Source: a phage. Taken from it: 28,542 bases of DNA. Below the pieces are notes generated by a model, which searched no databases, was not told the origin of the DNA, and worked only from the letters and a program-made list of their open reading frames with translations. Numbering within the stretch: position 1 is the first letter of the stretch; every line of letters starts with the position of its first letter. Made by a program: the position numbers and the translations under genes. Location of the stretch: assembly GCA_012646845.1 (NCBI GenBank), contig GCA_012646845.1_4707.3, one strand, 5' to 3'. Shown here one piece after another: positions 1,731 to 18,082 of the stretch.

Positions 1731-1933
1731 CTGAACACACGAGAGACGTAATGGGTGATGGCGTCACCCATCGCTTCCTTGCTTGAGGCGAGGAAGTTAT
1801 TAGGTTACGTGCCTGCCTGATTTTATCAGGTGGGCGATGTGTGAAGTTACGCTTCAACATTATCATTGCCGAAGGTAAACTTCGTGCATCACGTTCCAAC
1901 GTAACATGGGAACGTATCGAACTGGAGGTATAC

Positions 1934-4900
1934 ATGGTAGATAAAACCCGTGTTGAGGGTGATGATAATTGGGATAACTGGGATGATGACTTCTCCCTGG
2001 ATCTCGATTTTAACGAACCCAAAGACGATCGTAAACCGATAACCCGCTTTGCGGTAGGAGCGGTTAAAGGTGCTGCTGAGGATCTTACTTCCTACGAAAG
2101 AATGAAGGAGATCGCCAGAAACGCATTGCCTAAGGGCTACAGCGACGGTATGGATCTTATCGATTCCGCCGTCGGATCCACGAAGGAACTATACAATGAA
2201 GCCGTTCGTGACGTTCTTCCTAAGGTCCAAAGCTCAAAACGGTTAGCCGCACAACTGACCAAGAAATACCGTGCGAGCATGCCCGATTTCTCGAAGAAAA
2301 TTCTTGAGCAATGGGAGCGAGAAGCCAAGGAAGAAGACGAACGTAAACAAGCTGAAGAAACCCTTCGTCAGCGCATGGCGAACGCGGGGGACGATGAGAT
2401 CGCCCGCAAGGTTGCCGAGGCATTAGGCGAATCAGCAAACCAAAGCGCGGATCAGTTTGCTGAACAGCAAGCGAAAGAAAGTATCCGTGACGATATCGCT
2501 GACAAACGGTACGCTGTAACCAACAAGCAAATGAGTGCGATGCAAGAAGGCGTCGCCAAGATGGTTGGTTTCAACAACGAATTTGCTGCGCGCTATATGC
2601 GTAAAAGCCTGGAACTGAAATATCGTTCCTTAGCGATACAACGCGCAAGTTTCGACCAGCATAAAAAGTTAGCCGAAGTCTATATCGGTTTATTACAAAA
2701 CATCCAGAAGAATACGGCTTTACCTGATGCGGCTAAAGCAAAAATGTCGGAAGAATTCCGTCGTAGTGCATACCAACGTTTCTTTGGTAATGCGTTAGAT
2801 GCGATGGGTTCTTTCGAGAACCGTTTCTTTGCCGATGTTAAGAAGAACCTCGCCACCAACGCATTAGGTGCTTTAAAAGGCGTCGTGTCTGGCGCAAACG
2901 ATGCGTTATACGGTTTAAACGAAGCACGTGACTCGATGTCCATGATGGACGGGATGGGGTCAGAAGGCGATATTAAGGAAATGCAAGGAAAGATGTTGGG
3001 TCAGTTCATTGGCTCAACTGTCGCGCCGTGGATGGCTAATAAAGGCAGGATGGCGTTACGCGATTTAGCAAAACGTCACCCCAATGCTAAATTCGCTAGC
3101 GCATTAAAAGCCGTGGATCAAGGTGGTGAGGCTGCCGCTTACACGACGCGTAATCTCGGTAAACTGCTCCAGGAAGATATTCGTAAGAACGAATTCAATC
3201 TTAGCGATCCATTTTACAAGCAATTGTTACGCGGCGCAGGGCGTTGGGCGTTCAACATGGACAGTGGACGTAACTTCCGTGTGATGAACGACACCGCTGA
3301 AACACTGGCAGAGCAAACATCTTTCGACGGTTTAACTTACCGCAGTATCAATGAAGTTATTCCTGGTTTTCTTGCACGCATTCTGAAAAGCAGTGAAGGT
3401 ATCCGCACAGGAAACAGCGATCCTGACTACGAGGTCTATGACGGCATCAGCGGGCAATTCGTGTCTCAGCGCACGCGCGAGCAAAGCGTCAACGACACGC
3501 TGTTTAACAAACGTTCATTTGGTTATTACGCCAGCCGTTTCAACGAGGTTATCTCGGTCATCGATCCTGATAAGCAATTATCGGAAAAAGCCAGGAAGGC
3601 ACTGGCCAAGCAGTTGGCACGAGATAGCGACGCGAACATCGCATTCGACCCGGCTCGTTTTACGGATGAAAGCAACTTCGATCGTAGCATTGATCGTGAC
3701 GCTATTAAGGAACTTTCCACGTACTTTCGTGACCGTTACGGTATTCGTGATGATGTCAACGATAAGGGCGAACGCCATCAGGTCATTGGAAACCGCGGGC
3801 AATATTACACGGAACGTAACCGAGCCGATCTTCGTTACGGTAATCTGAAATCTTTACAACCGGATATCCAGCGTAACCTTAACCTGCTGAAACGTACTGG
3901 TGATGTCCAATATCTGGAACGGATCGGGATTGTAACGAGAAATAGCGACGGGAGCTACTCGGTTAATCACGATCGATATTTCTCTGAAATTGATCAATAC
4001 ATCGACAGACCAGAGTACGCTGACCGCGGCGATGTCAATACACGATTAACTGCTCAGGAAACAAGAGCACTGGCGCTGGGTTATCGTGACGCAAAACCAT
4101 CAGCTGGTGACGTCCAAAATACGGGTCTGCCGAACATCGATCGTAAGGCTGCTGGAACAGTAACCATTGATGAAAACATCGGCTACGATAAATGGTGGAA
4201 CGACGCAGGTGTTATCACCACATCGCTTGAAGAACAGAATCGAGCGTGGCAAGAGCTTTATCTCGAGGCGTTGTCCGAAGCATCCGAACAACGTGTTGAA
4301 ATGCTTGCGTTGCTGAAAGCCATTTCTGAGAAAGACTGGTCTAATAACGTTTCGCTGGATGGCGAAGACGTACCTGAAGGTGCAGCGCCCATTTCATTTA
4401 TCGATCGCACCAAACAAAAGCTCGGCACACGCAACCTCTTTAAAGGCGGTCGTAATCTCCTCTGGAAAGGAATTAAAAATACCGCACGGTTGGGTGTTAA
4501 AGGTGCACGCTGGGGTGCAGAACGTACACTAGGTAGTTTGGTAAATTCCGGCAGACGTATTATCGATTTCAACCGTTTTGTGTTCGGCGCATTATCCAAG
4601 GTTGATCAGGTTCCGTTTGACATTTACGTTAAAGGGGAATCCCAACCACGCATATTGGCTGCCAAACTTCGTCAGGGGTTATACTTCGACGAAGCGACAG
4701 GAAAAGCCGTAAAACGAATGAAGGATATCAAAGGCCCACTCGTTGATGCGGATGGAAACATCGTAATCAGCAACGAGGATATCGAGAAAGGGTTGGTCAC
4801 TCGCGCTGGTCGCGCCTTTGAGAATTCAGGACTTAAAGCGTGGGCGCATGAGGGTCTTAATGGAATCACGACGGTATTAAGTCTGCCACGGATGTTAAAA

Positions 4901-7900
4901 CGCGGCGCGGTTGAGATCTACAAACAGCTCGACAAAACGCCCGACGTTTACGTCAAGGGAGAATCAACGCCTCGTCTATTATCCATGGTGTTAGCGGCGG
5001 GTGGGTATTTCCGTCGCTCCGACGGACAAACCATCAAAAATCTTGAAGACATCGATGGCGATGTTGTTGATGCACAAGGTAACGTCGTACTTACGCTTGC
5101 CGACATGCAGAAAGGACTTGTCGATAAATACGGTAAAGCGATTCGGCGCTTAAAAGAAAAGCTTATCAACTTCGGTGTAAAAGCTTTTACGTTACCGTTA
5201 ACGCTGTTACGTAAGACAAAGGACATCCTTAAAACCCTTCCAGGTAAAACCGTTAACGGCCTACGACGGATGGGATTAAATTTCCAATCACCTGACGCAT
5301 TACTGGTGGGAACAACATCGAGCATGGTAGATCGTCTCGATGCTATTTACCAGCTTCTTGACCAACGTATGCCGGGTGGCGATAGGGATTATCGCGATTG
5401 GAATGGGGATGGTGTTCGAGAAGGATCGTTGGAAGACCTGAAACGTAAGCGTGAAGCCAAGGAAAACGGTAAGGATGGCACCGGCAAAGATTCCAATAAA
5501 GGAGAAGAAAAGGAGAAGAAACGAGGATTACTCGGAAGCCTTTTCGATATGCTTGGCGATACCGCATTAGGTAAACGACTCATGGCGAGTCCGCTTGGAA
5601 AAATTCTAGGTGGTCTTGGGGCGGTGTTAAGTGGCGGAGCATCGTTAACCGGATTGTTGGGTAAGGGTCTCATTAGTGGAACCGGCGCGCTAGTCAAGGG
5701 AGGACTAAGTGCGGCAGGATGGTTAGGACGTGGTGCGTTAATGGCGGGCGGGGCCGCATTGAACGCTGTTGGCGGGTTATCGGGATTAGGCGCATTCCTT
5801 ATATCACCTGTTGGGCTTGCTATTGCAGGTGGTGCATTGGCTGCTTATGCGGGATGGAAGATCTATCAGCATTTCGCCGAGAAGCCTGACCCGATGCAGA
5901 AGCTCCGTCTTATTGCGTACGGTGCAAAAGGGGACGATAAAGACTTCAATAAGAAGCTGCTTGCGACAGAAACATACCTCACCGACCACGTGGTTATGAC
6001 CGGGGATACCATCGGATTCGATCCGAAAGCCGACTCGGAAAAGATTCTCGAAATCTGGGAATTGTCTCTGGAAGATTCCGACCGAATGAACGAATGGAAA
6101 CGCTGGTATCTGCATCGTTTTATTCCTGTTTTCGCTCGTGCGTACAAACTCTGGAAAGAGCATATGCCGGACGAGAAGAAATACATGGAAATGGATAAAT
6201 ATCCGAACGGTGAGAACAAAGTGAAATGGTCGGAAGCGTTTATCTGGCCTTCCGATAGTCCTGACGGTCCGTATTACGTCGAAGCTAACCCGTTGGGTTC
6301 TTCTGGTGCGACGCGTTATATTGCTGGTCAAGACGTCAAAACCTTGATGCTGAAACAACTCGAAGCCATCAAGAAAGAGTACCAGAATCAGATCAAACAA
6401 TACTCTCATGATGAGGCTATTGCTGATTGGTCACGGATGTCTGACACACAACGTAAATCCGTTGCGCCTAACGCATTACGCGGTCAGAAAGCGTCGTTAC
6501 GTTTTAACGATAAACGTTATAACAGTGCTGGCGCTAAAGGACGACAGAAGCTTGACGCAACCGCGGTTATTGAAAGCGTAGACCGTCGTGGTAGAAAATG
6601 GGTCGCCGGTGGATACATCGATGAACTCACCAGTCTTCGTGTTCGTGCGTACGGTATTAAGGTTCCGTTGTTAAGTCAGATAAAAGTGCTGATGGAACTC
6701 GAAGACGCTGTAGAACCCGGTGTTGTCGCTGAAGGTAAAGGTGTTAAATACGGTGGCGATCTTGTCGCGCTCTACAAGAAATTCGCGACGAAGTTCGGAA
6801 GAGACGTTAACAGCAAGCAGGATCAGGATATCTGGTTTGCTTGGATGAATAACCGTTTCCTGCCCGTCTTTTTAACCTATTACCAGCACGTTAGCGACAT
6901 GGGTGGCCAAGGTCTTCTGTCCGATGTGGTACAGAACCTGAAAGACAGCCAACGCTGGGAGATCGGTGAGGCACTTGTCGCAACGCAATACCGTGATGAG
7001 AAAGGTGCACTCCAGCCTGTATGGTCCTGGAATAGTTGTGGTTTCTCCGGTACTGAAGCTAACACCACCAGCAGTTCAACAAAGAGCCAACTCGATCTGT
7101 TAAAAGAATATGCGGATAAAGAGAAGGTTCGTGAGAAGAACGCGGAAGCATCGCAAGAGGATACCGATAAATTATCGAAGATCCAAGAGCTGATGATGAA
7201 GCAGGCTGGGTACGAGAAGAAAGACGGTGTCTGGCAGAAGAAATCACGCATTACCGGTGGGATGAGTAACTCCGAAGCGAATTACAACCCCAATGGGAAT
7301 AGGGTAGGTGCAAGCAGCTTTACCGCTTCAGCTACTTCCAGTGCGGGATTGGGGTCAACCGGCGATCTTACCGGATTGCCTAACATGGGCTTACAGAAAC
7401 CTGCAACGGGACCAGGTCCCGAAGCTGGACGTCGTGCGCTTGTTAAATCCGCTGTGAAACGCGGTATTACCGATCCAATGGAAATGGCGATGTTCCTTGC
7501 AAACATCGAACATGAATCGGGGAACTACACTCACGTACGTGAGGGGAACTATAAGACACCAGAGCGTCTTAAACAGGTCTTCCCTTACAAATTCCGTGAC
7601 GTGCAGGATGCAGCGCAGACGATTAGCATGGGGCCGGAAGCGGTATTCGAACGCGTGTACGGTAATCGTAAAGACTTAGGGAACACGCAGAAAGGAGACG
7701 GTGCGAAGTATTTAGGACGTGGCTTCATTCAGGTTACCGGTAAAGCTAACTACGCTCGTCTGTCCAAGACCTTGAATAAAGATCTTGTCAGCGATCCATC
7801 ATACCTGGAAACGCCGGAAGGTGCGGCGGAAGGTAGTGTCGCGTGGTGGCTCAACCGAGGCAATGTGTTACGCGATCCTGCGAAACGGGGTGATGTGCGC

Positions 7901-8599
7901 CAAGTTCGTTATCTGGTTAACGGCGGCTATAATGGATTACGTGATGTTGAACAGCGCTCTGCTTATTGGATTCAGGCGGCTAAGAACGGCACCCTGAAGA
8001 AAATGATGGACGAGTTATCAGGGTCAACATCCGACGATCAAGCTGAAGGACCGACCACTGCCGAACAGGTGAAGAACGAAGCAGCACAAGAGGCAAACGG
8101 AACACCTGCTGTAAGCAACGATCCGCAAGCCCCAGCACCTTCTACCACCCCTGAAGCTAAACCGTCGGCGGCTGCCGGTACGGCTCCAGCACCCGGAGAA
8201 GCATCACCAACGCCTGGAAGTTTCGAAACAGCGAAAGCTGCGGTAGGACAACCGACATCAACGCCAGCACTTAGCGATTTGCCGTCAAACCCCGGCGCAA
8301 ATCGAGGGATATCGGTTCCGAATACACCCGCACAGGTCGCGCAGTCTGCGACACAAACATCGGTCGCGAGTGAGAACTTCTACGGTAGCGCAGGTGAAAT
8401 TCTCCGACAGCAGCTGACCACGCAGCAGAACATCGAGAAGAACACCGGTAGAACGAATGAACTTATTTCGGAATTAATCCAAGCCGTTAAGGGTTCTTCT
8501 ATCGGTAAGGGTTCTGCAAGTCCTTCTCAACAACAGGCGATGTCGCTACCTAATCGTCCGCAAGGAATCTCTCCAACACGGACAAGGTACGCACAGTAG
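1934..8599 (+). CDS. Giant virion-associated protein (~2,221 aa) with glycine-rich hydrophobic segment and GH19-like peptidoglycan hydrolase domain
   Basis: Single uninterrupted ORF. The track starts it at GTG 1841; I prefer ATG 1934, preceded by GGAGG (1924-1928) at 5-nt spacing. Motifs FLANIEHESGNY...YLGRGFIQVTGKANY (nt ~7490-7760) resemble GH19 lysozyme/chitinase signatures. Gly/Ala/Leu-rich hydrophobic stretch at nt ~5515-5880. P/A/S/T-rich linker at nt ~8040-8330. Hairpin terminator follows. Confidence 0.8.
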   Translation: MVDKTRVEGDDNWDNWDDDFSLDLDFNEPKDDRKPITRFAVGAVKGAAEDLTSYERMKEIARNALPKGYSDGMDLIDSAVGSTKELYNEAVRDVLPKVQSSKRLAAQLTKKYRASMPDFSKKILEQWEREAKEEDERKQAEETLRQRMANAGDDEIARKVAEALGESANQSADQFAEQQAKESIRDDIADKRYAVTNKQMSAMQEGVAKMVGFNNEFAARYMRKSLELKYRSLAIQRASFDQHKKLAEVYIGLLQNIQKNTALPDAAKAKMSEEFRRSAYQRFFGNALDAMGSFENRFFADVKKNLATNALGALKGVVSGANDALYGLNEARDSMSMMDGMGSEGDIKEMQGKMLGQFIGSTVAPWMANKGRMALRDLAKRHPNAKFASALKAVDQGGEAAAYTTRNLGKLLQEDIRKNEFNLSDPFYKQLLRGAGRWAFNMDSGRNFRVMNDTAETLAEQTSFDGLTYRSINEVIPGFLARILKSSEGIRTGNSDPDYEVYDGISGQFVSQRTREQSVNDTLFNKRSFGYYASRFNEVISVIDPDKQLSEKARKALAKQLARDSDANIAFDPARFTDESNFDRSIDRDAIKELSTYFRDRYGIRDDVNDKGERHQVIGNRGQYYTERNRADLRYGNLKSLQPDIQRNLNLLKRTGDVQYLERIGIVTRNSDGSYSVNHDRYFSEIDQYIDRPEYADRGDVNTRLTAQETRALALGYRDAKPSAGDVQNTGLPNIDRKAAGTVTIDENIGYDKWWNDAGVITTSLEEQNRAWQELYLEALSEASEQRVEMLALLKAISEKDWSNNVSLDGEDVPEGAAPISFIDRTKQKLGTRNLFKGGRNLLWKGIKNTARLGVKGARWGAERTLGSLVNSGRRIIDFNRFVFGALSKVDQVPFDIYVKGESQPRILAAKLRQGLYFDEATGKAVKRMKDIKGPLVDADGNIVISNEDIEKGLVTRAGRAFENSGLKAWAHEGLNGITTVLSLPRMLKRGAVEIYKQLDKTPDVYVKGESTPRLLSMVLAAGGYFRRSDGQTIKNLEDIDGDVVDAQGNVVLTLADMQKGLVDKYGKAIRRLKEKLINFGVKAFTLPLTLLRKTKDILKTLPGKTVNGLRRMGLNFQSPDALLVGTTSSMVDRLDAIYQLLDQRMPGGDRDYRDWNGDGVREGSLEDLKRKREAKENGKDGTGKDSNKGEEKEKKRGLLGSLFDMLGDTALGKRLMASPLGKILGGLGAVLSGGASLTGLLGKGLISGTGALVKGGLSAAGWLGRGALMAGGAALNAVGGLSGLGAFLISPVGLAIAGGALAAYAGWKIYQHFAEKPDPMQKLRLIAYGAKGDDKDFNKKLLATETYLTDHVVMTGDTIGFDPKADSEKILEIWELSLEDSDRMNEWKRWYLHRFIPVFARAYKLWKEHMPDEKKYMEMDKYPNGENKVKWSEAFIWPSDSPDGPYYVEANPLGSSGATRYIAGQDVKTLMLKQLEAIKKEYQNQIKQYSHDEAIADWSRMSDTQRKSVAPNALRGQKASLRFNDKRYNSAGAKGRQKLDATAVIESVDRRGRKWVAGGYIDELTSLRVRAYGIKVPLLSQIKVLMELEDAVEPGVVAEGKGVKYGGDLVALYKKFATKFGRDVNSKQDQDIWFAWMNNRFLPVFLTYYQHVSDMGGQGLLSDVVQNLKDSQRWEIGEALVATQYRDEKGALQPVWSWNSCGFSGTEANTTSSSTKSQLDLLKEYADKEKVREKNAEASQEDTDKLSKIQELMMKQAGYEKKDGVWQKKSRITGGMSNSEANYNPNGNRVGASSFTASATSSAGLGSTGDLTGLPNMGLQKPATGPGPEAGRRALVKSAVKRGITDPMEMAMFLANIEHESGNYTHVREGNYKTPERLKQVFPYKFRDVQDAAQTISMGPEAVFERVYGNRKDLGNTQKGDGAKYLGRGFIQVTGKANYARLSKTLNKDLVSDPSYLETPEGAAEGSVAWWLNRGNVLRDPAKRGDVRQVRYLVNGGYNGLRDVEQRSAYWIQAAKNGTLKKMMDELSGSTSDDQAEGPTTAEQVKNEAAQEANGTPAVSNDPQAPAPSTTPEAKPSAAAGTAPAPGEASPTPGSFETAKAAVGQPTSTPALSDLPSNPGANRGISVPNTPAQVAQSATQTSVASENFYGSAGEILRQQLTTQQNIEKNTGRTNELISELIQAVKGSSIGKGSASPSQQQAMSLPNRPQGISPTRTRYAQ

Positions 8600-13152: not shown

Positions 13153-13782
13153 ATGAGCGAATACGGTGTTGTCCCCGTAGATGATGAACCGCAAGAGGCA
13201 CCCGATAAATTCGAGGTCCGTCTTGACGAAACCCGTAACATCCGTCAACGATTTATTCAACGTCTTGAAATGCTGTTAGATAGCGAATTCAAAGATTTTG
13301 AGCGTAACCCCGGTGCAGATAATAAAGCCATTGTCGACGTCGAAAACGTCGACCGGATAGGTAAGCTGTTGTTGAAATCGTTGGGTGATAACGATAAAGT
13401 CGACTTAACGTTGAAACGTATCAGCGCCGACCAGGCTATGAACGACAGCGCATTGAAAACAGCACAGGCCCTAACCGAAACCATGCTGCGCCGCTTAGGT
13501 CAGATAGATGAACATCCTCTCGCAGCAGGGGCTGTTTACGATGGCGAAGTCGTGAAGTCAGTTACGCCTGAAGAACGCGATCGTCGACTTGGTTTTGCAT
13601 CGTTGGAAGAGTTTAATAGCAAGGAGTTTTCACCAGGCGTTCTCATCCAGGGACGTGTCGAAGAAACCAGTGATGCTTTCTACGCTAGAATGGCTCAACT
13701 GACGGAGTCGGTTCGTGAGGAGGTGTCTCAGAAGATGGCTGCAGATCATCAGTCTTCGGAGGCGTCACACGAGGAGGGATAA
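13153..13782 (+). CDS. Hypothetical acidic protein (209 aa)
   Basis: ATG at 13153 with GGAG SD about 8 nt upstream. Glu/Asp-rich. The 3' end overlaps the convergent gene's 3' end by about 98 nt. Confidence 0.65.
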   Translation: MSEYGVVPVDDEPQEAPDKFEVRLDETRNIRQRFIQRLEMLLDSEFKDFERNPGADNKAIVDVENVDRIGKLLLKSLGDNDKVDLTLKRISADQAMNDSALKTAQALTETMLRRLGQIDEHPLAAGAVYDGEVVKSVTPEERDRRLGFASLEEFNSKEFSPGVLIQGRVEETSDAFYARMAQLTESVREEVSQKMAADHQSSEASHEEG

Positions 13783-14473
13783 AATAACTGAACCATTTTA
13801 TCCCAAAGAACCGCATGAACATCACGGGTGCGTTAGAAAGTTCGATTGCTTCGTAAAGTTTGTCGTAAGCCAGATCGGAATCAGGGATGGTTTCGCTGAT
13901 TCGTCTGGCGACAACCAACACGTTACAAATCGGATTGTCTTCTAACAGCATCTGATTGGGGAGATGCCAGCGTTTGAAATCGTAAAAGAACATTGCGTTA
14001 TATGTCTTACGGATTTCTGATGGATGCAGTGTGGCCGGATGACGGTAAATAATCTCGACGCTATCTTGCGCACCGAGGTATTGCTGAATACCTTCTTTTA
14101 ATGCTGTCGCTGCATCTCCCACAAATTCAAACGGGTACGTGTTCACGTGAACCGAAAAATCCGGCGTAGCAATCCCCGTTAAGCGGTCTTTCATGTAATC
14201 CGCGACTACATAACACAGCCGCCACATCAACTCCGTCGGGATACATTTATCGAGAATGGTCTCGTCGATATTTGCCATCGCGTCCTTAAACTCTTCGTAA
14301 GTATAAGTAACGCCCGCCTGCTTCTCCGGCTCCAGGTTATAGGGTCGGTAATGCCATTTCTTCCCCCACTTTCTGATAGCCTCCGGATCCAACGTTGTTG
14401 CTACCGCCATTTCGATATCAAGCAATGCTTCGAGTTCTACGTACACCGTCACCAATGCTGCACTTCCAGTCAT
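13685..14473 (-). CDS. Hypothetical protein (262 aa)
   Basis: ATG at 14471-14473 overlaps the upstream gene's TAA stop by 1 nt (TAATG coupling). Last gene of a six-gene minus-strand block. Confidence 0.7.
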   Translation of the reverse strand: MTGSAALVTVYVELEALLDIEMAVATTLDPEAIRKWGKKWHYRPYNLEPEKQAGVTYTYEEFKDAMANIDETILDKCIPTELMWRLCYVVADYMKDRLTGIATPDFSVHVNTYPFEFVGDAATALKEGIQQYLGAQDSVEIIYRHPATLHPSEIRKTYNAMFFYDFKRWHLPNQMLLEDNPICNVLVVARRISETIPDSDLAYDKLYEAIELSNAPVMFMRFFGIKWFSYFIPPRVTPPKTDDLQPSSETPPHEPTPSVEPF

Positions 14474-15179: not shown

Positions 15180-15854
15180 TTAGCCCTCATCAAGGTTATT
15201 CTGGAGATGCATTGCGGTGAGAATAACACCAACTGCCGAAACCGATTTTGCCTTGCTGTCTTCGGGTAGCTGTTCCAAGCTTACGGTACCTGTTTCTAAC
15301 AGCATGCGGTTCATCGCGTTGAACTTCTTATCATCGCCACCACGAGCCTGCATTAACTCTCGGTTCACGTTTGGCATCGATCGTCCTAACGTTGCTTGCA
15401 TTTCCGGTTGACTCCAAGTGGAACCTTTACTATCACCTGTCGGCTGATTGGTGAGCTGGTCCTTGGTGTTGTTGTTTTTCGGAATCGATATTTTAGCACT
15501 CAGCGTTTCGGCTTGTCGGCGGTTTGGAATCAGGTACAATCTGGTTGGGCGATCACGAAGCACCAATTGTCCTGTTTTCTGATCGGTGAGATAAACGCGT
15601 TGGAAGAAAGGGAAACCGTATTTCTTGCCGACTTCCAGTGCGCGTTTTATCGTCACCTCGTTTTTGTTCATATTGGGTACCCAGATGGGTAGAATCTCTT
15701 TCTTATCCCGACATAAACGCATATACGCATCAAACGTCTCATCATCGATTTCAGCAAAACGTTTTTTGTAAATAGCGTAGGTCGGACTCGATCCCCCCAC
15801 CAAGTCTTTGATATACCCAAGAATGAATTTTTCTGCTGCAGCGCGGTTGGACAT
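15180..15854 (-). CDS. Hypothetical protein (224 aa)
   Basis: ATG at 15852-15854 with AGGAGA SD that overlaps the stop of the upstream SLOG-like gene. Confidence 0.7.
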   Translation of the reverse strand: MSNRAAAEKFILGYIKDLVGGSSPTYAIYKKRFAEIDDETFDAYMRLCRDKKEILPIWVPNMNKNEVTIKRALEVGKKYGFPFFQRVYLTDQKTGQLVLRDRPTRLYLIPNRRQAETLSAKISIPKNNNTKDQLTNQPTGDSKGSTWSQPEMQATLGRSMPNVNRELMQARGGDDKKFNAMNRMLLETGTVSLEQLPEDSKAKSVSAVGVILTAMHLQNNLDEG

Positions 15855-15863
15855 AAACGTCTC

Positions 15864-16190
15864 CTATTGTCGTGTCTGTTGCGGAAATACCCGAAACACC
15901 TGGACGATGATGTTCTTGTCCTCGCGGTTGGCGATGTCAATCATGTGTTTTGTTCCAGGACTTTTGAAATCCCAGAACGCAACTAGATGCGTAATGACAT
16001 CGCCCATCCACTCGTTGCGTCTGAATCCAGCACCTTTACGATAAGGGCCATCCCAATCGGCAGGAAACGTGGTGTATTTAAACCCGTAATCCTTCGCATA
16101 GCGGCGCACATGCAAATCAGCACCTGAACGCGCACCGCCAGCAATGAGATGAACTTTGTCGTGAGGGAGGTTATGTAACATCTGGTTCAT
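15864..16190 (-). CDS. SLOG/DUF2493-like small Rossmann-fold protein (DprA/LOG-related)
   Basis: Motifs HLIAGGARSGADLHVRRYAKDYG ... FPADWDGPYRKGAGFRRNEWM ... LVAFWDFKSPGTKHMIDIA match the DUF2493/SLOG pattern as I recall it. Track start is TTG 16205; I prefer ATG 16188-16190 (MNQMLHNL...). Confidence 0.6.
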   Translation of the reverse strand: MNQMLHNLPHDKVHLIAGGARSGADLHVRRYAKDYGFKYTTFPADWDGPYRKGAGFRRNEWMGDVITHLVAFWDFKSPGTKHMIDIANREDKNIIVQVFRVFPQQTRQ

Positions 16191-16258
16191 ACGCTTTTCG
16201 AACAAGGGATAATCATCCCAGTAGCGTGATCCTGATACCCCTACACGATAGGGTTCGC

Positions 16259-16579
16259 TTATCTTCCACCGCGCAATGACTTTACGTTGCGTGCAATAAA
16301 GGGCGCAACGTAATCACGGAAATTATGGATCCATCCTTTAATGGGTTGGTTGTCTAGTAAGCACTCTCGCACCGAGAACGTACTTACTTCTAGTACACCG
16401 AACTGCAATCGCCAATAACGATTGATTTCGGCTTGGGCGTGTTCTAAGGTCATGTACTCAGGGACACGAGCCAGCAGATCGTGTTTAAATTGCTCGGCAA
16501 TCGCTGGCTGATGCGATGCAATTGTCTGTGCGATAACATCAACCAGTTCGTGCGCGTGCTTGATAGCAGGTGCGGTCAT
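16259..16579 (-). CDS. Hypothetical protein (106 aa)
   Basis: ORF whose ATG (16577-16579) lies inside the last codons of the upstream gene (about 13-nt overlap). Confidence 0.55.
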   Translation of the reverse strand: MTAPAIKHAHELVDVIAQTIASHQPAIAEQFKHDLLARVPEYMTLEHAQAEINRYWRLQFGVLEVSTFSVRECLLDNQPIKGWIHNFRDYVAPFIARNVKSLRGGR

Positions 16580-16591
16580 TTATTCAGCCTT

Positions 16592-18082
16592 TTATTTTTT
16601 GCTTGGACGATTTAATGCAGGTACCGGGTTCTTTGGTTGCTTTGTCTTTTCATCCATCCAGTACGGGAAGTACTCACCGGTACGCATACGCAATAAGTCC
16701 ATTGTGGACAAGAACGGTAGCGGGTTAGGATCATCCAGATATGTCCAGTAACCGCGTGTGTTTAACAACACATCCCAATCGAACCCTTTTGCTTTAAGAT
16801 CGTCGTACAGTTCCTGCGGGGTGCAATACAATTGCGGATTTTCGTAAACCTCTTGACGCCAGAGATTATGCATCTGACATAGCTCCGACGTAATTTCCAG
16901 AGCACGCTGTAAATACTCATCTTCTTCGCAGAGAGAACGAATGGTCGTGCGCTGCAACGCAACATCCGGATAAATATCCAAATACACCGTTGAAGCACCA
17001 TCAGCTGACTTACCACCTGACGCATGCATACCCCAACCACGCATCCAATCTTTATCACGCAGGTAGTGGTATTCCGTTAATGATGGTTTAACCCCTTCGC
17101 TCTGACTAACCACAATCGGGAACGGTAAGCCAGTGGGTCCGTTTTTAGCACGCATGTTGAAGACTTGGATCATCTGTAGATCGGTATCACCAATAAGGTT
17201 ATCACCAGGCCCACGCGGATAAAGAACGCGTTTATCGGCGTTCTGAAGGATCGTCAGTTTATCGATTTTCCAGAGGTTGTTCGTATAAAACGTGAAGCGT
17301 TCCGGGACGTTCTTAAACTTCTCATCGCCCTTAAACCCTTTCAGTTTTCGTACCGGCTGCTGTCCCGGCATACCACCAACGTTTACGCCATCGCCGAGGT
17401 GGGCGGTCATGGTAATGTAGATACCTGCTGACGCTGTGAGTACCGGCATCTGTGATAGAATCTGGCTTTTCGCTGCTGCCGAACGCATCGCTTCAGCATT
17501 CAGTTTTGCACCACCCGCGGTTTCTTTATCAAACAGTGCGTCAACGGCATCGATTGGTAATCCAGAGAAACTGTCGATGAGTACAACGGTTGGTAACCAC
17601 CAGGTATAGTTCTCGCCATGTTTATTAATGAACGGAACGGCTTTGCGTTGGGATTTATCTTTGACCTTGTCGTCACGGAATTTCTTAATCGCATCAAACC
17701 AAATGTTACCACTCATCTGAACAGCATCGGTGATAAACACACGTTCTTCTTCGAAAAGATCGACACCCGCGATATTAGACATGTTCATCGCAAGCGTTAA
17801 GATACGCGTTGTCGTTAACGACATTTCTGTATCGTAAACGCTACTGTTGCTGTTCGCGTAACGATCGATAACACGTAACAAGCGAAACATTATGAACGTG
17901 GTTTTGTTCATGTTGCCGCGAGCGCCTGCGCCCTCAACAAGCATCATACCGCCGTTACAAATGCTTTCACCATGTTTACCGACATAGTACCGACCGCCAG
18001 ATGTGGGAATATCCATTAAGCAGCCAATGTTGAGATTAAAACGCATCTCTTCACCGGGAGAAAGGTACTTATTAAGATTCAT
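16592..18082 (-). CDS. Divergent RecA/UvsX-like protein (496 aa) with non-canonical P-loop; assignment tentative
   Basis: Motif-level resemblance to the RecA core: hhhhDS Walker-B-like VVLIDSFSGLP, followed by ...AEAMRSAAAKSQILSQ... and ITMTAHLGDG (compare RecA VVVDSVAAL...MRKLAGNL...IFINQIR). The expected Walker A region reads EGAGARGNMNKTTF, which is not G-x4-GK[ST]. ATG at 18082 with AAGGAG upstream. Confidence 0.45.
   Translation of the reverse strand: MNLNKYLSPGEEMRFNLNIGCLMDIPTSGGRYYVGKHGESICNGGMMLVEGAGARGNMNKTTFIMFRLLRVIDRYANSNSSVYDTEMSLTTTRILTLAMNMSNIAGVDLFEEERVFITDAVQMSGNIWFDAIKKFRDDKVKDKSQRKAVPFINKHGENYTWWLPTVVLIDSFSGLPIDAVDALFDKETAGGAKLNAEAMRSAAAKSQILSQMPVLTASAGIYITMTAHLGDGVNVGGMPGQQPVRKLKGFKGDEKFKNVPERFTFYTNNLWKIDKLTILQNADKRVLYPRGPGDNLIGDTDLQMIQVFNMRAKNGPTGLPFPIVVSQSEGVKPSLTEYHYLRDKDWMRGWGMHASGGKSADGASTVYLDIYPDVALQRTTIRSLCEEDEYLQRALEITSELCQMHNLWRQEVYENPQLYCTPQELYDDLKAKGFDWDVLLNTRGYWTYLDDPNPLPFLSTMDLLRMRTGEYFPYWMDEKTKQPKNPVPALNRPSKK

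Follow-up and report, generated by a model that had tools for sequence, protein, structure and literature searches.

In this study, we found that Goslar-type chimalliviruses may obtain their DprA-like SLOG domain solely by −1 extension of a protein of the PhiKZ gp150 family, a reading to which we give slightly better than even odds. Programmed −1 frameshifting, which would join the upstream protein and the SLOG protein in a 238-aa product, is the explanation that we favor, with a probability of about 0.6. The SLOG gene of the Goslar clade appears to have lost its own initiation codon, and because of this loss a complete, foldable SLOG domain would be obtained only by a ribosomal shift from the upstream gene. 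The window, that is, the whole stretch of 28,542 nucleotides that was analysed, comes from a relative of the nucleus-forming jumbo phage Goslar (95% identical), and the layout of the SLOG ORF in it is the same as that of Goslar HOV27_gp195/Goslar_00241. A DprA-like SLOG protein next to uvsX has already been described for jumbo phages and is ordinary; the expression mode in the Goslar clade seems to be the new part.

Features of the window around the SLOG gene, with positions counted from the first nucleotide of the window
Feature	Position	Strand	Remarks
SLOG ORF as annotated (C-terminal 108 codons of the YAcAr domain)	15864..16190	−	ATG 16190, an internal Met, to the TAG stop at 15864-15866
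Start-less continuation of the SLOG frame, VIARWKISEPYRVGVSGSRYWDDYPLFEKR	16191..16280	−	linker, strand β1, GSR loop and first part of α1
Candidate −1 slip site C_GTA_AAG	16280..16286	−	invariant GTAAAG
Conserved hairpin	16244..16273	−	5' arm CGCGGTGG 16273-16266; variable 14-nt loop 16265-16252; 3' arm CTATCGTG 16251-16244
Upstream gene, 106 aa, Goslar HOV27_gp194, PhiKZ gp150/PhiPA3 gp173 family	16259..16579	−	phrog_6181
Predicted 238-aa frameshift product	15864..16579	−	upstream codons 1-100 (16579-16280), then −1 frame from 16280 to 15864; base 16280 read twice
UvsX/RecA-like recombinase gene, 496 aa, Goslar HOV27_gp193	16592..18082	−	phrog_97, E 2.4e-32; opens the co-directional block
Next gene downstream, a piece of the beta subunit of the phage multisubunit RNA polymerase (PhiKZ gp149 family)	15180..15854	−	phrog_3233, E 1e-65; also so annotated

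The ORF at 15864-16190 is a real SLOG protein of the PF10686/YAcAr family, in agreement with the SLOG/DUF2493 membership proposed by the first-pass annotation. The 108-aa form scored 31.9 bits against PF10686 (Pfam gathering threshold, 28.2 bits) and matched phrog_289 with an E-value of 1e-25; the ORF is also listed from TTG 16205. Its motifs IAGGARSGAD, FPADW, AGFRRN and FWDFKSPGTKH were found to fall on invariant or near-invariant columns in the homologue alignment (the last of them as FWDFKSPGT). The motifs noted in the first-pass annotation are thus present in the interval, whereas strand β1 and the Gly-Ser-Arg loop lie outside it. β1 and the G-(S/C/G)-R loop occur as YRVGVSGSR at 16250-16224 (the strand, YRVGVSG, at 16250-16230), and they become visible only by reading the frame 5' of the annotated ATG. 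When the frame was extended upstream, the PF10686 score rose to 52.4 bits and the coverage of the 66-position profile changed from 22-64 to 2-64.

The AF2 model of the extended protein (pLDDT 89.9) showed five strands alternating with helices in a Rossmann-like fold, with the domain ending about 10 residues past β5. The DprA-like fold that had been anticipated was recovered by Foldseek, which matched the model to H. pylori and S. pneumoniae DprA with a TM of ~0.65 (TMq 0.63-0.67 for the structures 4ljk, 5mll and 3uqz). ShosA, Moco-carrier/LOG-like proteins and the TRPM2 SLOG domain were also among the matches, which had a probability of 1.0 and E-values from 5e-5 to 7e-3. At the sequence level, PF10686 was matched by 47 of 47 homologues and the DprA family PF02481 by 20 of the 47 (best E 3e-8), while none of them matched the LOG model PF03641. 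The window protein itself gave no match to PF02481 at E ≤0.01. The LOG motif PGGxGTxxE is absent from it, and it has SPGTKHMID, without the catalytic Glu spacing. A PDB sequence search returned no match, the NCBIfam and PADLOC searches gave nothing useful, and no Rfam family was found in the window.

The true N-terminus is not at the annotated ATG (16190). The AF2 model has the annotated Met as residue 33, inside helix α1 (residues 26-37), and β1 is formed by residues 13-19; therefore, a 108-aa product would be without a core strand. The annotated Met is replaced by Ile (ATA) in lineage L102, and no Shine-Dalgarno sequence was found 5' of the annotated ATG. The SLOG frame is open 5' of this codon. 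The 21 codons before it encode β1 and the GSR loop, and they showed a dN/dS of 0.09-0.22 with saturated dS (pN 0.16-0.22, pS 0.6-0.8), the same as the core. The start-less segment is thus under protein-level purifying selection like the core.

No ATG, GTG or TTG precedes β1 in the SLOG frame in the window, Goslar, L006, L007, L091 or L102, and neither a canonical nor a near-cognate start was found anywhere before β1 in L006 and L007 (L007 to L009 are three independent assemblies). As a control, about 82 other viral SLOG loci were inspected, and all of them had a canonical start 1-11 codons before β1 or a longer N-terminal ORF; the other SLOG homologues all align from β1. The earlier picture of a minimal stand-alone small protein is wrong for the Goslar clade, because the 108-aa product lacks β1 and the gene lacks an initiation codon. 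The start-less gene was seen in six lineages of this single, Goslar-like clade. A metagenome scan gave only 99%-identical genomes, a scan of viral contigs for the cassette pattern found only the three Goslar-type genomes, and the GTDB genomes contained no further lineages.

In every lineage the SLOG frame lies at −1 to that of the upstream gene, and the protein conservation changes frame at GTA_AAG, where the six nucleotides are invariant in six lineages. At this site the upstream frame reads GTA AAG (V99 K100) and the −1 frame reads CGT AAA, then GTC. The upstream protein is conserved up to "...VK", after which its tails vary (SLRGGR, LSRGGM, K or R before the stop), and the −1 frame is conserved from K onward as (V/A/E)(I/L)(A/T)RW. 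Each frame is under purifying selection on its side of the candidate shift site. In L091 and L010, the stops of both frames limit the shift to about five codons. A_AAG is an invariant slippery tetranucleotide within this permitted span and is not a full X_XXY_YYZ heptamer; because its P-site codon, GTA, has no re-pairing partner in the −1 frame, it is a weak one-tRNA site. It is documented that A_AAG tetranucleotides serve as −1 sites in cdd (A_CGA_AAG) and IS1222 (G_CGA_AAG), and that A_AAG is decoded by a single E. coli tRNA-Lys (PMC5009743).

The pattern GTAAAG-N6-CGCGGTGG-N14-(C/G)TATCGTG does not vary among the six lineages, although their synonymous sites are saturated elsewhere. The hairpin has an invariant 8-bp core (stem 8-11 bp) starting 5-6 nt after the AAG, and its arms are the gene's longest invariant nucleotide runs. 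It was the local MFE structure in five of the five lineages folded, with a dG between −10 and −13.3 kcal/mol and base pairs of probability ≥0.96. All five cassette codons were codon-invariant, compared with 3 of 43 elsewhere (Fisher p = 3.3e-5, in a test devised after seeing the cassette). Synonymous sites are frozen at the cassette alone, and in both arms of the hairpin. The hairpin is modest, with 3-4 G.U pairs, and in a 62-nt context it was not stabler than dinucleotide shuffles (z ~0). The global MFE of L010 in this context is a different fold, and local folding alone recovers the stem everywhere. As the arms do not vary, hardly any covariation is available as proof of the pairing. No upstream SD-like element is conserved.

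We propose that the tRNA-Lys on AAG at C_GTA_AAG (16286-16280) would re-pair with the overlapping AAA, and that the conserved hairpin, with its core 6 nt downstream, would hold the ribosome during re-pairing. After the shift, the ribosome would translate a 10-residue linker (VIARWKISEP), then β1 and the rest of the SLOG domain. The majority of ribosomes would stop normally and give the 106-aa helical protein, and a fraction would go on to make the 238-aa fusion, in which the SLOG domain follows the helical domain. As in lambda gpG/gpGT, such a shift would set a fixed product ratio and tether the second domain to the first. The ribosomal nature of the shift, its position at A_AAG, its efficiency and the function of the product are what we infer from this arrangement.

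The upstream protein is predicted to be a compact helical bundle (pLDDT 93) whose last helix ends at residue 98. Its family, collected with HMMER, comprised 131 cluster representatives, nearly all of 80-135 aa and stand-alone, and the homology stops at about position 98. Since both the homology and the last helix end there, the frameshift would keep the whole upstream domain. No convincing structural neighbours of this helical protein were found. The idea that it is SAM-like, which would mimic the architecture of S. pneumoniae DprA, was rejected, as it had no SAM-like match.

Besides the one-tRNA slip site, the modest hairpin and its scant covariation, further observations speak against the frameshift. 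None of the 131 representatives proved to be a natural in-frame fusion of both families in an exhaustive HMMER search, in which the matches were all short and two long outliers were unrelated coiled-coil or other proteins, and a word-indexed fusion search gave two matches and no fusion. Moreover, other chimalliviruses encode both proteins separately. Other routes between the two frames were also considered. Bypass of the T4 gene-60 type was rejected because it would skip β1, which is under selection, and transcriptional slippage was rejected because the run consists of three A's only. A +2 tRNA-Val hop from GTG to GTA at ATC_GTG_TAG was rejected because the upstream TAA already closes that frame in L006/7, L102 and the window. 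A +1 shift starting at the conserved third-frame GTG (inside CGCGGTGG) was rejected as well; this frame offers 4-codon ORFs in three lineages and no re-pairing codon, and it is open in the window.

A complete domain could also be obtained without a shift if translation began at codon 9 of the extension by non-canonical initiation, independent of or coupled to the upstream gene, giving a stand-alone SLOG protein of ~132 aa. Under this reading, which we consider unlikely, the ribosomes ending the upstream gene would reinitiate, and the hairpin together with GGTGG would be a masked Shine-Dalgarno or coupling device. The window, L091 and L102 have ATA as codon 9 (in the window it overlaps the upstream stop as A-TAA), and L010 has TTG; in these lineages weak independent initiation may occur. 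GGTGG lies just 5' of codon 9, the upstream gene terminates within the hairpin or immediately 5' of it, and the product would match the usual family N-terminus of Met, a few residues and β1. However, codon 9 is GTA in L006 and L007, the two lineages without any canonical or near-cognate start before β1, and the spacing from the Shine-Dalgarno to the start would be merely 3 nt. An ATA or GTA at this codon needs no start function where the upstream stop overlaps it, because the overlap forces NTA, and the residue varies among I, V and L as an internal hydrophobic residue would. Read in the SLOG frame, the codons from AAA to codon 9 also change conservatively (I/L, A/T, R, W), and they do so even where they encode nothing else, in L010 and L091.

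It is very improbable that the annotation is right and that a functional 108-aa protein starts at ATG 16190, with the upstream sequence left over from an N-terminus that was lost. This ATG was picked by gene callers as well as by those who annotated Goslar, and the 108-aa form is above the Pfam threshold, but the upstream 21 codons are selected as the core is, across lineages with saturated dS. In addition to the Ile in L102 and the missing Shine-Dalgarno sequence, such a product would be without β1, the GSR loop and most of α1 of a five-stranded sheet, and every other family member keeps β1. Frame breaks in lone assemblies are often errors, and a single-base indel in sequencing or assembly could hide a normal start or a single ORF. 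This reading, hardly credible now, is already effectively refuted by replication across assemblies, as the same arrangement was found in the Goslar isolate, three IMG/VR genomes, five more metagenome genomes (209-249 kb) and five divergent lineages, for which both the samples and the assemblers differed.

Among known recoding systems, lambda gpG/gpGT and other phage −1 programmed frameshifts have, like the arrangement predicted here, a shift at the end of a small ORF, a start-less −1 downstream ORF and a fusion that coincides with the shorter product at the N-terminus. The lambda site is a full heptamer (G_GGA_AAG) and the window site is not; B. subtilis cdd and IS1222 share the A_AAG motif with the window site (PMC5009743). 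In contrast to lambda and IS1222, the genes of the window are unrelated to tail assembly or transposition, the candidate stimulator is a simple hairpin, and the case is predicted from sequence. E. coli dnaX (tau/gamma) resembles the predicted cassette of the window in its AAG-based slip, its 3' hairpin after a short spacer and its place in a DNA-metabolism gene. However, dnaX uses A_AAA_AAG with an upstream SD and its shift truncates the protein, whereas the shift in the window would add a whole domain at a site without a conserved upstream SD-like element.

Bacterial DprA is a loader of RecA. The SLOG protein of the window has in common with it the Rossmann-like SLOG fold, the GxR and GGAxGAD loops and the genomic association with the RecA family, but is about half its size and lacks the accessory SAM and/or C-terminal DML1/winged-helix domains. 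Within the chimalliviruses, Erwinia phage RAY "DprA gp153" and Serratia phage Moabite gp253 are of the same PF10686 family, fold and block position as the window SLOG. The proteins of this type are stand-alone, 148-164 aa long, with their own ATG and RBS and a basic C-terminal tail, whereas the Goslar-clade SLOG has no start and no basic tail and is in the −1 frame of the upstream gene.

If the frameshift is true, the GenBank and RefSeq annotation of Goslar gp195 is wrong and describes a 108-aa fragment unable to fold, and cloning from the annotated ATG for localisation or biochemistry would give a non-native protein. The fusion would tie the PhiKZ gp150 family (131 sequence clusters) physically to the recombination module, acting as a natural "Rosetta stone" that assigns an orphan chimallivirus protein to the UvsX/DprA machinery and fixes the product ratio. 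It would offer a testable hypothesis on what this family does in every nucleus-forming phage, also where the two proteins are encoded apart. It would also mean that recoding had gone unannotated in a nucleus-forming phage and would be a non-structural, DNA-metabolism case of phage programmed frameshifting, and the A_AAG plus hairpin cassette would be compact, would work with E. coli ribosomes and would be available in a tractable model phage.

The RecA-like gene that had been noted two genes upstream on the same strand is a UvsX-like recombinase of phrog_97, and its homologues in Moabite, PhiEaH1, PhiPA3 and FLC1-1B carry a UvsX annotation. No promoter or terminator was found between the genes of the block. 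The order UvsX, small ORF, SLOG and RNAP-beta fragment was observed in Moabite, PhiEaH1, Ralstonia FLC1-1B and the six Goslar-like lineages. The expected co-occurrence with a recombinase held in these chimallivirus groups but is not general: PhiKZ and PhiPA3 have no SLOG gene at this position, and only 5 of 80 diverse viral SLOG loci had a UvsX-like gene within 3 kb. The adjacency of SLOG and UvsX is therefore a chimallivirus synteny and not a family-wide rule.

The SLOG domain likely acts on ssDNA with UvsX in the phage nucleus as a DprA-like mediator, a function for which the synteny with uvsX and the nuclear localisation of the RAY homologue are indirect evidence. Alternatively, it may bind or process a nucleotide-derived signal of the NAD+/ADPR type, for example, as a counter-defence sponge or enzyme, and would not load UvsX; we regard this as possible, though doubtful. 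Ligands of the ADPR type are bound by the SLOG domains of ThsA and TRPM2, and the structural matches of the model include both TRPM2 and ShosA. In three unrelated phages the SLOG gene is placed among small early genes, a position typical of anti-host functions, and the scarcity of UvsX-like neighbours (5 of 80 loci) points the same way. It was also predicted that the YAcAr SLOG domains of jumbo phages use NAD+ (PMC7824862). On the other hand, the family is nearest to DprA by sequence, DprA structures are among the best Foldseek matches, and the gene is kept beside uvsX in four chimallivirus groups. The DprA-like interpretation of jumbo-phage SLOG proteins has already been published (Iyer 2021, PMC7824862; Prichard 2023 for RAY gp153). 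The localisation data for "gp193" of Birkholz 2022 were left out, as the gene numbering differs in that paper. Against the signal function, the homologue of RAY is found in the nucleus together with the phage DNA (Prichard 2023, PMC10299810), and ICP1 HelB bears a SLOG domain on a DNA helicase.

The 3.2-kb stretch around the SLOG ORF shows 95% identity to Escherichia phage vB_EcoM_Goslar, a jumbo phage of the nucleus-forming chimalliviruses, and no other record in the phage collection matched the SLOG-ORF region at the nucleotide level. The first-pass annotation had described a small SLOG/DUF2493 protein lying near a RecA-like gene, and this observation was confirmed as far as the annotated ORF goes. 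The 108-aa product scored 31.9 bits against PF10686 (YAcAr, "YspA, cpYpsA-related SLOG family", formerly DUF2493; gathering threshold 28.2 bits) and matched phrog_289 (E 1e-25). The RecA-like gene lies on the same strand, two genes upstream, and encodes a UvsX-like recombinase; it had no Pfam match, and its homologues carry the UvsX annotation in several chimalliviruses. An unexpected result was found just beyond the annotated ORF: the SLOG gene lacks a start codon for its full domain, and its most likely mode of expression is a -1 frameshift fusion.

Coordinates of features in the window
Feature	Position	Strand	Match or annotation
SLOG ORF	ATG 16190, stop 15864-15866	-	Goslar HOV27_gp195 / Goslar_00241, 108 aa, "hypothetical protein"
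Upstream gene (small ORF)	16259-16579	-	Goslar HOV27_gp194, 106 aa; PhiKZ gp150 family
Invariant GTA_AAG	16285-16280		
UvsX-like recombinase gene, 496 aa	16592-18082	-	phrog_97, E 2.4e-32
RNA polymerase beta subunit fragment (phage multisubunit), downstream of SLOG ORF	15180-15854		phrog_3233, E 1e-65
Convergent ORF	13153-13782	+	PHROG match of unknown function
Convergent ORF	13685-14473	-	PHROG match of unknown function
Single ORF, 2252 aa, GTG start	1841-8599	+	

The SLOG frame 5' of the annotated ATG reads ...RKVIARWKISEPYRVGVSGSRYWDDYPLFEKR, followed from the annotated Met by MNQM..., and is open until well inside the upstream gene. When this extension was included, the PF10686 score increased to 52.4 bits and the profile coverage from positions 22-64 to 2-64 of 66. 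Homologues were found by tblastn in 594 records (50,697 phage genomes), with alignments starting at residues 4-9 of the extended query, i.e. at "YRVGVSGSR". In the AlphaFold2 model of the extended protein (47 sequences as input, mean pLDDT 89.9), the first strand, beta1, comprises residues 13-19 (YRVGVSG) and the first helix, alpha1, residues 26-37. Because the annotated Met (residue 33) falls midway along alpha1, the 108-aa form would be without beta1, the Gly-Ser-Arg loop and most of alpha1 of the five-stranded Rossmann-like sheet. In pairwise comparisons between lineages, the 21 codons from beta1 to the annotated ATG had a pN of 0.16-0.22 and a pS of 0.6-0.8 (dN/dS 0.09-0.22 where dS was unsaturated), indistinguishable from the annotated core (pN 0.20-0.26, pS 0.7-0.9). 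These substitution patterns indicate that the start-less segment is translated.

The window and Goslar are 100% identical across the start-less region, and neither has an ATG, GTG or TTG between the upstream in-frame stop and beta1. Divergent Goslar-like relatives were obtained from public assemblies (L006, a 101-kb contig; L007, L008 and L009, three samples of one lineage; L010; L091; L102), and their proteins share 60-72% identity with the window protein. Gene callers place the start at the same internal position in all of them, and the conserved beta1 (YRVVISGTRKWDDY... or YRVGVSGSRKWDNY...) lies upstream of the called start in every lineage. A canonical start before beta1 is absent from L006, L007, L091 and L102, and a near-cognate start there is absent from L007. 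L010 has a single TTG, merely 2-3 nt past the nearest purine-rich stretch, and L102 carries Ile (ATA) in place of the "annotated" Met. As a control, about 82 other viral loci with a homologue were examined: all have either a canonical start, ATG in almost every case, located 1-11 codons ahead of beta1, or an ORF that is longer at the N-terminus. A sequencing artefact was ruled out, since the same frame layout recurs in an isolate genome, in three genomes from IMG/VR, in five more metagenome genomes that are near-identical, and in five divergent lineages.

In all lineages, SLOG is encoded in the -1 frame relative to the upstream gene. Conservation of the upstream protein reaches as far as "...(N/Y/H)VK", after which its tails are short and variable (SLRGGR, LSRGGM, SSRGGM, SLRGGK, K in L010 and R in L091, each ending at a stop), and the -1 frame is conserved from the same point as K-(V/A/E)-(I/L)-(A/T)-R-W-x-(I/V/L)-x-E-(P/R)-Y-R-V. 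Substitutions in this -1 stretch are conservative and use different codons, also in L010 and L091, where no other coding overlaps. In L091 a SLOG-frame stop lies three codons before the Lys codon, and in L010 and L091 the upstream frame ends two codons past it, so that any frame change is confined to about five codons. The sole slippery sequence within them is the invariant GTA_AAG.

All six lineages (6/6) share the cassette GTAAAG-N6-CGCGGTGG-N14-(C/G)TATCGTG-TAG. Its complementary 8-nt arms (8 bp including three G.U pairs, lengthened to 10-11 bp in some lineages) exceed every other invariant nucleotide run in the gene, and the 6-nt spacer and 14-nt loop are variable. By local folding, the stem was the minimum-energy structure in 5/5 lineages tested (dG -10 to -13.3 kcal/mol, pair probabilities at least 0.96); stability above dinucleotide shuffles was not found in a 62-nt context, and covariation was almost nil because the arms do not vary. 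A synonymous test, devised after the cassette was seen, counted codons with an invariant, degenerate amino acid: five of five in the slip site and arms (AAA, CGG, TAT, CGT, GTA) were codon-invariant against 3/43 elsewhere (Fisher p = 3.3e-5), and with five lineages 5/5 against 6/53 (p = 1e-4).

The arrangement agrees with established cases of -1 programmed ribosomal frameshifting: an ORF in the -1 frame that has no start abuts the end of a small upstream ORF, with a conserved A_AAG and a hairpin 5-6 nt past it. From these sequence features, we suggest with a probability of roughly 0.6 that SLOG is produced by -1 frameshifting, fused to the conserved chimallivirus protein encoded just before it. 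The ribosome would shift to -1 at A_AAG near the end of the upstream ORF, and the predicted 238-aa fusion would comprise upstream-protein residues 1-100, a 10-residue linker and the SLOG domain. The predicted structure of the upstream protein is a compact helical bundle (pLDDT 93) whose last helix ends at residue 98, with low confidence for residues 99-106, and homology within its family also ends at about position 98; the shift would thus add SLOG onto a complete domain. Atkins et al. (2016, PMC5009743) described A_AAG as a minimal, well-studied -1 site for the single tRNA-Lys of E. coli. A_CGA_AAG of B. subtilis cdd and G_CGA_AAG of IS1222 function without a full heptamer, and lambda gpG/gpGT is the classic phage shift close to the end of a small ORF (PMC5009743). 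In the Goslar-like lineages it would be a weak one-tRNA site with the hairpin as a modest stimulator. Searches for natural in-frame fusions of the upstream-protein and SLOG families found none. Phage DprA-like proteins and A_AAG frameshifting are known parts, and their proposed combination here is new. The start-less gene corrects the database annotation, and the frameshift proposal can be put to the test in a tractable phage of E. coli.

Other routes of expression were weighed against this proposal. Production of the truncated 108-aa protein from the annotated ATG conflicts with the selection acting on the upstream codons, with the Met to Ile change in L102 and with the structure. Initiation at codon 9 of the extension, coupled or non-canonical, is possible in the three lineages with ATA and the one with TTG at this position, but fails in L006 and L007, where codon 9 is GTA and no near-cognate occurs anywhere. 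Codon 9 must read NTA in every case of overlap with the upstream TAA, and it varies in the manner of an internal hydrophobic residue. Bypassing, a +1 shift from the third frame, a +2 hop at GTG_TAG and transcriptional slippage were also examined and rejected.

Foldseek against the PDB placed the model in the SLOG superfamily, with matches to ShosA, H. pylori DprA (TM 0.60-0.65), S. pneumoniae DprA (0.67), Moco-carrier/LOG-like proteins and the TRPM2 SLOG domain. YAcAr was matched by 47/47 homologues and the DprA family PF02481 also by 20/47, though not by the window protein itself, and the LOG model by 0/47. According to a proposal by Iyer et al. (2021), the DprA/SLOG proteins of jumbo phages may stand in for UvsY, and YAcAr domains may use NAD+ (PMC7824862). 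Prichard et al. (2023) reported that RAY "UvsX gp150 and DprA gp153" are both found together with phage DNA inside the nucleus, and classed DprA as non-core (PMC10299810). The DprA-like reading of the first-pass annotation is partly supported, but these two studies had already published it. In ICP1 HelB the same domain is borne on an SF1B helicase. We tentatively favour a DNA-side role (ssDNA binding, UvsX mediator), perhaps at even odds, over a nucleotide-signal role, which seems rather unlikely.

The stand-alone SLOG proteins of Moabite (L003:4992-5486), PhiEaH1 (L004:4986-5432) and Ralstonia phage FLC1-1B (L005:4983-5465) have a basic C-terminal tail (…KQRKGN..WR.KNGR…), absent from the window/Goslar protein (compare window 15864-15900). 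L006, L007 and L091 have a different tail (…KLPI.NEGVASC.TAQKPK.TSWD), and in these three the SLOG and RNAP-beta genes share 43 nt.

The order RNase H ... UvsX - small ORF - SLOG - RNAP beta fragment is common to Moabite, PhiEaH1, FLC1-1B and all Goslar-like lineages. PhiPA3, PhiKZ, 201phi2-1 and pPa_SNUABM_DT01 have the small ORF and no SLOG gene, which makes SLOG an accessory insertion into a conserved block. Outside chimalliviruses the association with a recombinase gene is lost: only 5/80 viral loci had a UvsX-like gene within 3 kb of the SLOG gene. Three phages carry the SLOG gene among small early genes: Bacillus phage Kirov, an N4-like coliphage and an Acinetobacter phage.

The UvsX-like ORF of L007 (L007:3029-5617, 862 aa; compare L006:4100-5617) has a 358-aa N-terminal extension with LAGLIDADG / Hom_end homing-endonuclease domains, in frame before the normal UvsX Met. 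It is absent from the otherwise near-identical L006 and looks like a homing-endonuclease (or intein-like) insertion directly upstream of uvsX. Goslar gene numbers conflict between PMC9891218 (ChmA = gp189; "gp193" = nuclear protein of unknown function) and RefSeq NC_048170, where HOV27_gp193 is the UvsX-like protein; the two should not be equated unless the sequences are checked. Elsewhere in the window, the two convergent ORFs, whose 3' ends overlap by about 98 nt, are Goslar gp199 and gp198, both annotated, and the 2252-aa ORF occupies nearly one quarter of the window. A homologue of the small upstream ORF, P0052 (NCBI "hypothetical protein ACMG5L_21910 [Escherichia coli]"), lies on a 19.9-kb contig, which places a Goslar-like phage fragment within an E. 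coli genome assembly (contamination or carrier-state infection).
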